A program made the translations under genes and the position numbers. A DNA stretch of 38,235 bases from a virus (taxonomy: Duplodnaviria > Heunggongvirae > Uroviricota > Caudoviricetes): IMG/VR virus record IMGVR_UViG_2563366949_000011; one strand, 5' to 3'. The notes under the pieces are model-generated. The model saw nothing but the letters and a program-made list of their open reading frames with translations. It made no database searches and was not told the origin of the DNA. The stretch's first letter is position 1; every line of letters starts with the position of its first letter. Positions 4,163-7,045 of this stretch are shown one piece after another.

Positions 4163-4394
4163 GTTGGTTTTTCTCCACGGATTTACCGACAACCGAAGCC
4201 CTGACTGTTCCAGCAGTTGGGGCTTCACTGTTTTGATTTCTTTGCCGCATCAAGCATCACTTCTGAAAACGTGCGCTTGCCACTGAATACTCTTTCTCTT
4301 CTCAATTTTTCGTTCGTGCCAAATGATTCGCCATGAACAAAATTTGGTCTTAAAATGGTAATCGCAATCTCTTTGACTACTGCATCCAAGCGAA

Positions 4395-4547: not shown

Positions 4548-4661
4548 GTTACCCTCCACGCAAACAACTCTTTTCGAATACAAAAGATAGCAAAGTGAGT
4601 ATATCTAGTCAAAATTTTTTTGCATACACTTTGCTATCAAATTGAATACCAAAGGTGTTAT
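4548..4661. promoter_or_regulatory. Divergent arc-ant / mnt promoter-operator region with a 12-bp inverted repeat pair
   Basis: GATAGCAAAGTG at 4586-4597 and its exact reverse complement CACTTTGCTATC at 4627-4638 lie in the AT-rich spacer between divergent RHH repressor genes. Confidence 0.45.
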
Positions 4662-4910
4662 ATGGCAAAGGGTGTGTCAATTTCTCCAACTACGGTAAGA
4701 ATCCCTGAATCTTTACGCGAGGCTCTTGCTGTCAGAGCATCAAAAAATGGTCGCTCTGTTAACTCCGAGATCGTCATGATTTTGCAAGCCGCGATTGATG
4801 AAGATAGGTCGCCAAAGTCAGTTGAGTCATTTGCTCAGCAAGAAGCTGATAAATTCAAAGAGGCGCTACTTGAGACGCTAAAGACCATGTATGCTAAGGA
4901 TGAAAAATAA
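4662..4910 (+). CDS. mnt: Mnt-like ribbon-helix-helix repressor
   Basis: 82 aa from ATG 4662: MAKGVSISPTTVRIPESLREALAVRASKNGRSVNSEI...KFKEALLETLKTMYAKDEK. The RHH motif and coiled-coil C-terminus resemble P22 Mnt. Divergent from arc. Confidence 0.7.
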   Translation: MAKGVSISPTTVRIPESLREALAVRASKNGRSVNSEIVMILQAAIDEDRSPKSVESFAQQEADKFKEALLETLKTMYAKDEK

Positions 4911-5446
4911 TGCTGCACACAATTCATTTCTTATGCCCTGTTAACACTGCCACTGTTGGGCAACTTCAGAACCACTGTCTCACCGCATTATCTCAAGGCG
5001 CAACTGAATTAAATATCCATATATCAAGTCAGGGAGGGGAAACTGCTGCTGGCTTTACTGCGTATAACTTTCTTAAGTCACTCCCTGTTACCGTTAGAAC
5101 TCACAACATAAGCAATGTTGAATCCATAGCTAATATCGTTTTCCTGGCTGGCTCAGAACGTTTCGCAAACCCATTATCAAGATTCCTGTTACATCCTCTA
5201 TTATGGTGCTTTGCCTCCCCAGCCGCCGACCATGCCAGATTGAGAGAGTACGGGAAATGCCTCGATAACGATCTTGATCGCTTCGTTGAGACGTTCAATA
5301 TCGACATCGGAACCCATATTAGGTGGGCATCCCTGATAGCAGACTCGACCATTTTGGATGCTAACAAGGCTCTTGAGCATGGCATAATTAATTCCATAAA
5401 AACTGCAAGGCTGGCATCCAATCAGGCAAACTGGTGGGTTGTTTGA
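4910..5446 (+). CDS. ClpP-like serine peptidase (Clp/crotonase fold), translationally coupled to mnt
   Basis: 178 aa; start ATG overlaps the mnt stop (TAATG). Motifs IHISSQGGETAAGFTAYNFLKS, a Ser in NVESIANIVFLAGS and a His in FLLHP align by eye with the ClpP pattern (INSPGG...AASMG...MIHQP). Confidence 0.55.
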   Translation: MLHTIHFLCPVNTATVGQLQNHCLTALSQGATELNIHISSQGGETAAGFTAYNFLKSLPVTVRTHNISNVESIANIVFLAGSERFANPLSRFLLHPLLWCFASPAADHARLREYGKCLDNDLDRFVETFNIDIGTHIRWASLIADSTILDANKALEHGIINSIKTARLASNQANWWVV

Positions 5447-5469
5447 TGGGTAAATCATGATTACTCCTT

Positions 5470-5494
5470 ATAAAAAACCCACCTGACGGTGGGT
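5470..5494 (-). terminator. Rho-independent terminator at the convergence point (mainly minus-strand sense)
   Basis: Hairpin ACCCACC-TGAC-GGTGGGT at 5477-5494 with an A-run at 5471-5476 on the + strand (U-run for the minus transcript). It abuts the stop codon of the YafO-like gene. Confidence 0.5.
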
Positions 5495-5944
5495 TTAGTC
5501 AAACATAGTGTTTCTAAAGTCTCTCGCATACCCTGCTAACACTCTCATTCTATTATGATTGTTAGCAGACATGTGAGCTACAGGATGAAAAAGAGCAATC
5601 AATGAATACCTGTTCTCATCAAAAAGATTTTGTGCATAAACGAGAGCGGTATTGGATGTTTTATGCCACTGCAACTTTTGCGGTGTGCTGATATCTGTGC
5701 CATTTTTTATTGGCTCAAATTTATTTTCACCAATTGCTAAATGAAGGTGCATAAGGCCTGCATCTTCAATATCAGGAGGTCGATGATAAGAGGTGTCTCT
5801 GCCAAAATAGCTGGGCAACGTTCCCGTAGACTTGTAGATGATAAAATCATCTACAAGTGTTTGTTTTAAATCAGGAAACTCAACAAAAACCGGGGAGAAA
5901 AAATAGTCAAAACTATCCTGATTATATTCCACGGTTACTTGCAT
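5495..5944 (-). CDS. YafO-like toxin domain protein (putative ribosome-dependent mRNA interferase family)
   Basis: 149 aa, ATG with GAGGT RBS. Segments DDFIIYKSTGTLPSYFGRD, LMHLHLA, ALVYAQNLFDE, LIALFHPVAH and NNHNRM align by eye with E. coli YafO (DFISYKRDGVLPDIFGRD, HIHLA, LVYCQGAFDE, NNQMH), recalled from memory. Confidence 0.55.
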   Translation of the reverse strand: MQVTVEYNQDSFDYFFSPVFVEFPDLKQTLVDDFIIYKSTGTLPSYFGRDTSYHRPPDIEDAGLMHLHLAIGENKFEPIKNGTDISTPQKLQWHKTSNTALVYAQNLFDENRYSLIALFHPVAHMSANNHNRMRVLAGYARDFRNTMFD

Positions 5945-5952
5945 GTTTTACC

Positions 5953-6519
5953 TCAGTGGAAGTTACCAGAGTGAAACACACGAGTCCCGTGCTCAGCAAG
6001 CGCACGCAAACCAGCCATATCTACGGAACTATCAAAAACAACCGGAACACATGAGCGTTGTTTAATAAGACTATTCAGGTTGGTTACGGCAGATCTGGCA
6101 TCAGCAACAACGATATAGATATCTCTTGCGATCTCTTTAAAATCAGCAGAAGCTTCTTTGAATACCGATTTCATTGCCCCTTCAAGTCCTCTCAATTGAT
6201 GCTCTATCAATCGAGACTTTTCTGGTTCAATGATAGACAACACATTGTCTACATTCTCATCGGTAGCGTTTGCAAGAACACGATAAGCGTATTTCAGCAT
6301 TCGAGACAATTCTTTAATCGAAGACACCGCCTCATGAAGCTCATCATTAGCCCGTTCACTGCTGAATGAGGATTGATGGTAAGCGTGCTGAACGTTATCA
6401 GTAACAACCACCTCACAACTGAACGCAGAAGCTTGCTGTAATAGCAAACCTATTGCGACTCCAGCTTTGGCAGCGTTCAAGCTAAACATTTCATCAATCC
6501 CATTAGTCTCATTGCTCAT
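5953..6519 (-). CDS. Hypothetical protein (188 aa), immediately upstream of and co-oriented with the YafO-like gene
   Basis: ATG at 6519 preceded by AAGGAGG. Stop lies 8 nt before the YafO-like start. No family recognised by eye. Region is AT-rich relative to the structural genes. Confidence 0.55.
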   Translation of the reverse strand: MSNETNGIDEMFSLNAAKAGVAIGLLLQQASAFSCEVVVTDNVQHAYHQSSFSSERANDELHEAVSSIKELSRMLKYAYRVLANATDENVDNVLSIIEPEKSRLIEHQLRGLEGAMKSVFKEASADFKEIARDIYIVVADARSAVTNLNSLIKQRSCVPVVFDSSVDMAGLRALAEHGTRVFHSGNFH

Positions 6520-6694
6520 ACAAACCTCCTTCTTATCGGAGATTATCAATAGCTATGCATCCATTGAATACACGCTATGCGCAATAAGTTTACGTCACGT
6601 GATATCATTATGCAACCACCGTTCTATCACCGACTAACTTTACTCCCACTCCTATACATCATCTGGTATCCTGCGCAAAACTAAGGAGGTTGGT

Positions 6695-7045
6695 GTGAAT
6701 GCTCAGTCTGTCATCATGGTTTTCCTTGGGCTGATTGTCGCAAAACTATATCCAGACTGGTGGAAAGGGGCATTAGCTACTGTCGCCATCTATTTGCTTT
6801 TATCCATCGTTAAGCGATCACTCGCTGAGACCGTAAATCAAGCAAAACGTTTCTCATTTAAGAGTTTAATAAACTATGTTACTGGGCTTATTTTTTGCCT
6901 TTCAATTCTGATCGCTTCGGCTTTTTTGCCCGTATCAATAGCTAATTTTTTTGGCGCACCATATGAGGTAGGTTATCTATTCTCTGTTTCCTGTCTTGCC
7001 ATTGCTCTTCTTTACCTGTGGACGAGATCAAAGAATAAAAATTAG
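6695..7045 (+). CDS. Small integral membrane protein (116 aa, about three hydrophobic helices), position equivalent to P22 sieA
   Basis: GTG start with AAGGAGG 5 nt upstream. Hydrophobic segments VIMVFLGLIVA, ALATVAIYLLLSIV and LIFCLSILIASAFLPV. Plus strand, convergent with the ejection-protein operon. Confidence 0.5.
   Translation: MNAQSVIMVFLGLIVAKLYPDWWKGALATVAIYLLLSIVKRSLAETVNQAKRFSFKSLINYVTGLIFCLSILIASAFLPVSIANFFGAPYEVGYLFSVSCLAIALLYLWTRSKNKN

Follow-up and report, generated by a model that had tools for sequence, protein, structure and literature searches.

What do two small, tightly linked minus-strand genes between the homologues of mnt and gene 16 do for the P22-like prophage that carries them? 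They lie in IMG/VR virus record IMGVR_UViG_2563366949_000011 (Caudoviricetes), a stretch of 38,235 nucleotides referred to here as the window, and an earlier reading of the sequence alone had described them as a two-gene cassette encoding a protein of no evident family and a YafO-like toxin, plausibly an uncharacterised toxin-antitoxin (TA) or abortive-infection module. Here we report that the two genes form a discrete, mobile unit with a strictly conserved composition, and we judge it fairly probable, from sequence comparison, that they constitute a type II-like TA accessory (moron) cassette, in which a helical partner neutralises a YafO-type RNase in the service of abortive infection or exclusion, or of stabilisation of the element. 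The two genes are as follows.

5953-6519, minus strand: partner gene, 188 aa from ATG, presumed antitoxin or controller of the YafO-like protein, PHROG 8416
5495-5944, minus strand: YafO-family toxin gene, 149 aa, of a predicted RelE/ParE BECR-fold mRNA endoribonuclease family

A YafO-family gene paired with an orphan partner family

The two genes are separated by 8 nt (5945-5952), and each is preceded by a ribosome-binding site, AAGGAGG located 5 nt before the ATG of the partner gene and GAGG located 6 nt before the ATG of the toxin gene, the latter overlapping the TGA of the partner gene. An alternative TTG start 30 nt upstream of the ATG would lengthen the partner to 198 aa. RefSeq (PGAP) has both genes, as 'hypothetical protein' and 'type II toxin-antitoxin system YafO family toxin', with the same calls as in the sequence-only reading. 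Being small, co-oriented, closely spaced and co-inherited, they show the organisation by which type II TA pairs are recognised.

The resemblance of the downstream protein to YafO, originally noticed by eye, was substantiated by profile search. The 149-aa protein matches Pfam YafO_toxin (PF13957) with E=3.4e-22 and 78.9 bits (cut-off 25) over profile positions 3-101 of 101, and shares 38% identity with K-12 YafO across residues 29-144. Against NCBIfam NF007377, the equivalog model of K-12 YafO, it scores 79 bits and does not reach the cut-off of 153, indicating that it is a member of the YafO family and not the K-12 orthologue. Ten residues (D33, F34, Y37, K38, D50, Y53, H66, Y103, E110 and H124) are invariant in an alignment of 18 sequences including K-12 YafO, and the candidate catalytic residues K38, D50, H66, Y103, E110 and H124 are among them, as expected for an intact RNase site; endoribonuclease activity is thus predicted from sequence. 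The best fold matches of a structural model of low confidence (predicted local distance difference test, pLDDT, 60) are the RelE, HigB, YafQ and YoeB toxins. The YafO family is described as consisting of mRNA-degrading BECR-fold toxins encoded in the gene order antitoxin then toxin (PMC11980606).

The partner could not be placed in any characterised family. The 188-aa protein has no significant match in Pfam or NCBIfam, its only match in PHROGs is phrog_8416 (function unknown), and none of 22 members of its family contains a Pfam or NCBIfam domain. Comparison with YafN indicated no homology (BLASTP E=36; hhalign probability 0.4%), and no RHH, RelB or YafN features were found, in agreement with what the sequence-only reading had said of this protein; that it might turn out to be a known virion or regulatory protein was not borne out either, as no known virion, regulatory or defence family was matched. 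It does not align with P22 SieA, and a sequence search of the PDB returned no relative. The partner-family profile likewise gave only noise against PDB sequences, the best match being a paramyxovirus fusion-peptide region, a weak resemblance on the side of the partner's N-terminal segment (E=0.08, not significant). In the AlphaFold model (pLDDT 73), long helices form a bundle and residues 36-53 are disordered, and fold searches with it recovered only generic helical bundles; as modelled, the partner is an all-helical orphan of a small uncharacterised family. The family comprises six 90%-identity clusters in a word-indexed search of 5.8 billion proteins, and 23 clusters at 50% identity in an exhaustive profile search of 1.84 billion representatives. 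Its conserved features are a hydrophobic N-terminal segment (residues 11-35), LRGLEG (109-114), ARSA (140-143; ARSA...LN.L..Q) and a C-terminal block, F.S.ID..GLR.LA.HGT, which usually ends in an aromatic residue and His (FH in the window protein). The C-terminus is the most conserved part across subfamilies.

The neighbourhood survey that the sequence-only reading had suggested revealed strict conservation of the pair in many unrelated temperate phages. Loci were gathered through relatives of the toxin, and all were then scanned with profiles of both proteins. A partner-family gene lies directly before the YafO-like gene on the same strand in 85 of the 85 phage or prophage loci having upstream DNA, with a gap of -4 to +18 nt, most often 8; loci lacking a partner are only contigs that start at the toxin gene, and K-12 yafO, which has YafN. 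These loci represent 53 distinct pairs (31 clusters at <=90% identity) from at least nine genera and at least six genomic contexts, with partners as low as ~25% identical to the window protein. Conversely, every partner-family member with an examined neighbourhood is directly upstream of a YafO-like gene. The named hosts are Escherichia, Salmonella, Proteus, Klebsiella (on phage-plasmids of ~110 kb), Pseudomonas, Buttiauxella, Pluralibacter, Enterobacter and Pantoea, and the cassette occupies the following contexts.

P22-like immI region
Siphovirus tail modules, including that of HK639, between tape-measure/lipoprotein and minor tail genes
Proteus myovirus tail module
P2-like element, beside old and ogr
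Pseudomonas phage YMC11/02/R656, downstream of a cI-like repressor gene on the same strand
Genome end of E. coli phage PhiR40_1, whose depositors labelled the partner 'YafM antitoxin' (a RAST-style annotation)

A genomics paper on Pectobacterium uses the label 'YafM antitoxin' too. In L015, a locus from a Buttiauxella prophage, a group II intron domain (RF02001, 134 bits) is located at 4548-4717, directly downstream of the YafO-like gene.

Control elements, mobility and selection

In the window the cassette extends over ~1.15 kb from promoter to terminator (6615-5470), and comprises three putative control elements in addition to the two genes.

6587-6615, minus strand: putative sigma-70 promoter, with -35 TTGCAT (6615-6610), a 17-nt spacer and -10 TAAACT (6592-6587)
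6520-6586, minus strand: 5' leader with AAGGAGG, in which a hairpin (UCUCC N8 GGAGG) from a predicted fold may sequester the Shine-Dalgarno site
5470-5496, minus strand: intrinsic terminator of the cassette, with a 9-bp stem, a GUCA loop and a U-run to ~5470, overlapping the toxin stop codon

The promoter candidate, read by eye from the sequence, agrees with the consensus at 8 of 12 positions, which is under the threshold of the scanner, and is the best candidate in the window; its spacer carries the palindrome TCACGTGA. In an alignment with the Salmonella counterpart (L024), the hexamers (TTGCAG and TAGACT there) and the 17-nt spacing are kept while the spacer sequence is different, consistent with promoter function of the 6615-6587 element. 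In the predicted fold of 6510-6640 on the minus strand, the Shine-Dalgarno site is paired with the upstream UCUCC (z = -2.6), and the CUCC...GGAG arrangement is invariant, without covariation, in the differing leader of related cassettes; this gives a faint hint that the leader may sequester the Shine-Dalgarno site. The terminator hairpin at 5475-5496 has a predicted energy of -14.9 kcal/mol (z = -3.0), and a 42-nt match to it in phage Emek is annotated there as a terminator. The cassette had been described as bracketed by terminators, which holds for this one, right after the toxin stop; the upstream one (7057-7044) follows gene 16 and is separated from the cassette by a 116-aa gene.

Related cassettes (L003, L005, L006, L008, L015, L016, L026, L027, L029-L033, L036, L038, L040 and L100) have in common a 5' region of ~150 nt that is unlike that of the window, located at 3270-3420 in L003 and, as a conserved stretch, at 4311-4421 in L100, which is phage HK639. 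This region contains the palindrome TTGCTCAaaaaTGAGCAA over a -35-like hexamer together with a small hairpin, a GC-rich hairpin followed by a T-run, in which loci differ by some compensatory changes, and an invariant GUCAGAGGURCUCC...GGAG with the potential to mask the Shine-Dalgarno site. No Rfam family was matched by it, and it may represent an operator plus an attenuator or translational control element. Within the toxin gene of the window, a perfect inverted repeat of 13 bp with a 3-nt loop (5830-5858) coincides with codons for LVDD/IIYK; only 8 bp of it remain in the Salmonella homologue and the others lack it, and we rejected it as a functional element, since it is probably a by-product of the VDD/IIY codons.

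DNA identity between cassettes starts ~150 nt upstream of the partner ATG and drops right after the toxin stop, which defines the cassette as a discrete unit. The site that it occupies in the window is variable. Phages phiv205-1 and EC.P3 are ~99% identical to the window over the arc-mnt-ClpP side up to position 5496, and past this position phiv205-1 has different genes in the slot of the cassette. The junction at 5496 coincides with the terminator hairpin overlapping the toxin stop codon, and by these sequence comparisons the terminator at 5470-5496 doubles as the left-hand recombination joint of the slot.

Exchange has occurred inside the cassette as well. The mosaic cassette L003 has its 5' part in common with L038 (96%) and its toxin in common with L005 (up to 92%), and in mosaic cassettes the C-terminal fifth of the partner diverges along with the toxin and the 5' part does not. 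Among L003, L005, L038 and L100, the closest relatives of the partner 5' part and of the toxin differ, showing that the family has reshuffled its partner and toxin types. Purifying selection acts on both genes: between the window and the Salmonella cassette L024, nonsynonymous (pN) and synonymous (pS) differences are 0.20 and 0.70 for the partner, and 0.075 and 0.76 for the toxin.

Proposed mechanism and competing explanations

If the pair acts as a type II-like module, the downstream YafO-family endoribonuclease, of RelE/ParE-type fold, would halt translation through mRNA cleavage, and the upstream gene, translationally coupled to the toxin gene, would encode its cognate neutraliser, an all-helical protein of ~185 aa that in temperate phages would replace the canonical antitoxin YafN. 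It is well known that toxin families can exchange antitoxins. In a lysogen, transcription of the pair would begin at the cassette's own promoter and stop at its own terminator, and the partner would keep the toxin inactive by direct binding, most likely via the conserved C-terminal block with its aromatic-His end; the strict co-occurrence of the two genes, and the divergence of this block along with the toxin, speak indirectly for such binding. The RNase would be freed when the partner is lost or displaced, candidate triggers being a superinfecting phage that shuts off host gene expression, some other trigger sensed by the helical body of the partner, or loss of the prophage. Once freed, it would arrest the cell and so bring about abortive infection or post-segregational killing.

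Such a module would combine traits of several known systems. It shares with yafN-yafO of K-12 a toxin of PF13957 with the conserved D/K/H/E/Y positions, as well as the order of partner gene first and toxin gene second with a very short intergenic gap. It differs in that its partner is unrelated to YafN, is 188 instead of 97 aa long, all-helical in the model and without a Phd/YefM or RHH domain, and in that its toxin has a longer N-terminus; moreover, yafN-yafO is part of the SOS dinB operon, whereas the window module is phage-borne. HK97 gp15 and lambda rexAB, the latter downstream of cI, are precedents of defence or exclusion morons. Like these and P22 sieA, the cassette is a discrete unit of promoter, genes and terminator inserted between conserved phage genes, and it is found at similar sites (near immI/sieA, at the moron sites of tail modules and downstream of cI); it has no sequence or fold relation to SieA or to PADLOC models, and its predicted effector is an RNase toxin and not a membrane protein. 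A phage-defence TA system having a RelE-superfamily toxin and a non-canonical partner has been described, for example the HigB-containing TAC module (cited in PMC11980606); the cassette, too, is a mobile-element module in which a toxin, here a predicted BECR-fold RNase, goes with a larger partner of a non-standard kind. The cassette differs from it by having neither a SecB-like chaperone nor a third gene, and by the orphan family of its partner.

Several observations weigh against a type II-like defence module. The partner is about twice the usual antitoxin size and, unlike most type II antitoxins, has no recognisable DNA-binding domain in family profile searches, and its N-terminus resembles a signal peptide, which, if the protein is exported, is hard to square with a cytoplasmic antitoxin. 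Among the PADLOC-DB v2 defence models the toxin has no match, and the partner matches only ZorA-tail (E=0.0039, 14 bits), which is coiled-coil noise. The confidence of the toxin model is low. The direction of the cassette in the window is that of the late operon, so that late-lytic expression is possible. In the literature searched, on YafO with defence, prophage or abortive infection, on 'YafM', on HK639 morons, on P22-like sieA and under the RefSeq accession, no characterisation or phenotype of the pair was found, and the DefensePredictor supplement was negative for it.

The N-terminus of the partner suggests a different picture, in which this protein is exported or membrane-associated, by a Sec-type signal or a membrane-interacting peptide, rather than simply acting as an antitoxin in the cytoplasm. 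The cytoplasmic YafO-like RNase would then be freed by something that happens at the envelope, for instance when a superinfecting phage injects its DNA or when secretion or the membrane is disturbed; or else the antitoxin would be turned over by export instead of proteolysis. We applied a crude n-h-c rule, requiring 8-12 uncharged hydrophobic residues in a row and a small-x-small motif after them; it flagged 30 of the 31 partner representatives, none of 31 toxins and 53 of 411 background open reading frames (ORFs; 13%), and recognised 13 of 14 classical E. coli signal peptides in a control set. Several partner subfamilies look textbook-like in this part of the protein (for example MNPFNAITFAALCGPLAQPAAMA|QEF and MARTKIPFSKVAMLSLALSVSTSCAQLAAA|TP), a variable linker, predicted to be disordered, follows the hydrophobic segment, and the cassette is often found at superinfection-exclusion moron sites, beside a sieA-equivalent gene or inside tail modules. 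The segment itself argues the other way, being far more conserved than normal signal peptides: its conservation equals that of the C-terminus and is well above that of the neighbouring linker, with GLL[LM]QQ nearly invariant in the subfamily of the window protein and CGPLAQPAAMAQEFIxQPAP carried by other subfamilies. In addition, the n-region of the window protein is net negative, hydrophobicity is below that of classical signal peptides, and AlphaFold predicts a single helix through the putative cleavage site (pLDDT 73-81 over residues 11-30). The Klebsiella phage-plasmid member lacks the hydrophobic stretch but is still paired with a YafO-like gene, and a partner in the periplasm would be unable to neutralise the toxin, which itself has no signal peptide. 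An assignment of the partner as a lipoprotein was rejected, as the conserved Cys35 is outside a lipobox, with H, P or S at position -1 throughout the subfamily. On balance we regard export or membrane association of the partner as unlikely, and a still slimmer chance attaches to its furthest consequence, that the partner is a new kind of antitoxin with a Sec- or inner-membrane-targeting N-terminus, whose toxin is released by export or an envelope event in an undescribed abortive-infection system of temperate phages of Enterobacterales and Pseudomonas.

The pair might instead be a TA module that only maintains the prophage or phage-plasmid, through post-segregational killing or in competition among mobile elements, and is inactive against phages. 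Type II modules on mobile elements classically serve addiction, stabilisation would be directly useful to the ~110-kb Klebsiella phage-plasmids that carry members, and no known defence model is matched; but an integrated prophage gains little from segregational killing, and the cassette recurs at positions typical of morons and defence genes (downstream of cI, beside old, beside the sieA-equivalent gene and at tail-module moron sites). Maintenance and defence are not mutually exclusive, and we see only a minor chance that maintenance is the sole role. A function in the lytic cycle instead of the lysogen appears much less probable still. In that case the RNase, made by read-through of the late operon, would shut off mRNAs of the host or of competitors, while the partner would time or restrain it. 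The pair is indeed co-directional with and embedded among structural genes in the window and in several siphoviruses and myoviruses, and in related cassettes a terminator-like hairpin follows the promoter-like element ahead of the start codon; late antitermination would read through it. Yet the cassette has a promoter-like element and a terminator of its own, its position elsewhere is clearly not a late one (downstream of cI, by early-left genes at a prophage end, near an integrase), and the pair is dispensable for P22-like growth, given that the related phage phiv205-1 has different genes in the slot.

Prophage surroundings and implications

The window is a P22-like (Lederbergvirus-type) prophage that occurs in E. 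coli ST95-type strains. Its positions 5450-6600 (1151 bp) occur with 100% identity in the chromosomes of at least 20 complete E. coli genomes, among them APEC O1, S88 and the type strain of the species, and of 5,426 complete genomes, 55 contain this stretch at a coverage of at least 80%; the APEC O1 copy of the prophage adjoins tRNA-Arg and intS. Left of the cassette lie an Ant homologue, a small ORF, Arc, the sar antisense RNA, a Mnt homologue (36% identity with P22 Mnt) and a ClpP-like gene, and the presence of the sar antisense RNA between arc and ant indicates that the immI region is intact. The features flanking the cassette are as follows.

4163-4229, plus strand: sar antisense RNA, P22-type (Rfam RF00262, 83.9 bits), between arc and ant
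4620-4910, plus strand: Mnt-like RHH repressor gene, its stop overlapping the start of the ClpP-like gene (ATGA)
4910-5446, plus strand: ClpP-like serine-protease gene, 178 aa, immediate left neighbour of the cassette, in place of P22 orf59a
6695-7045, plus strand: membrane-protein ORF, 116 aa, predicted multi-pass, immediate right neighbour of the cassette

The 178-aa protein matches Pfam CLP_protease (E=2e-11) and is far under all ClpP equivalog cut-offs. The mnt-like and ClpP-like gene pair is also present in phages phiv205-1, where the latter is labelled 'head maturation protease', and EC.P3. It is unusual for a stand-alone ClpP-like protein to be co-transcribed with a lysogen maintenance repressor, and this one may have a further accessory or defence function.

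To the right, the 116-aa ORF, which has no match in family profile searches, is followed by the gene-16 homologue (30% identity to P22 gp16, E=2e-52; PHROG 'DNA transfer protein'). On the P22 map, sieA adjoins gene 16 on the opposite strand and is followed by an intergenic gap and then the mnt-operon terminator. Because the 116-aa ORF adjoins gene 16 on the opposite strand in the same way, it is the positional equivalent of sieA; direct comparison with P22 SieA revealed no similarity, and the ORF is a candidate superinfection-exclusion gene. Since this ORF occupies the sieA position, the cassette is outside sieA's own place, between the sieA-equivalent gene and the mnt-operon terminator. The sequence-only reading, which had put the cassette in the superinfection-exclusion slot, was therefore right about the flanking mnt and gene 16, and the cassette stands beside the sieA-equivalent rather than in its place.

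As for the novelty of the module, the description 'uncharacterised' applies to the partner family only, because the toxin family and its annotation are already known (PGAP) and a homologue of the partner already bears the label 'YafM antitoxin'. The strict pairing of YafO-like genes in temperate phages with an orphan, non-YafN and apparently non-DNA-binding family is undescribed in the literature searched and absent from PADLOC. YafO is among the least understood RelE-type toxins, and to our knowledge the only YafO partner studied so far is YafN of K-12. As shown here, the YafO-like toxins of temperate phages come with a different, uncharacterised partner family, in a discrete cassette that moves among the accessory-gene sites of unrelated phages. 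If the cassette proves to be only an addiction module, the gain would mainly be a better annotation of a 'hypothetical' gene. If it acts in defence or exclusion, it would be a compact two-gene system missed by current defence catalogues, including in prophages of ST95-type extraintestinal pathogenic E. coli (APEC O1, S88), and an antitoxin with no DNA-binding domain and with a membrane-peptide-like N-terminus could reveal a new mode of toxin control.

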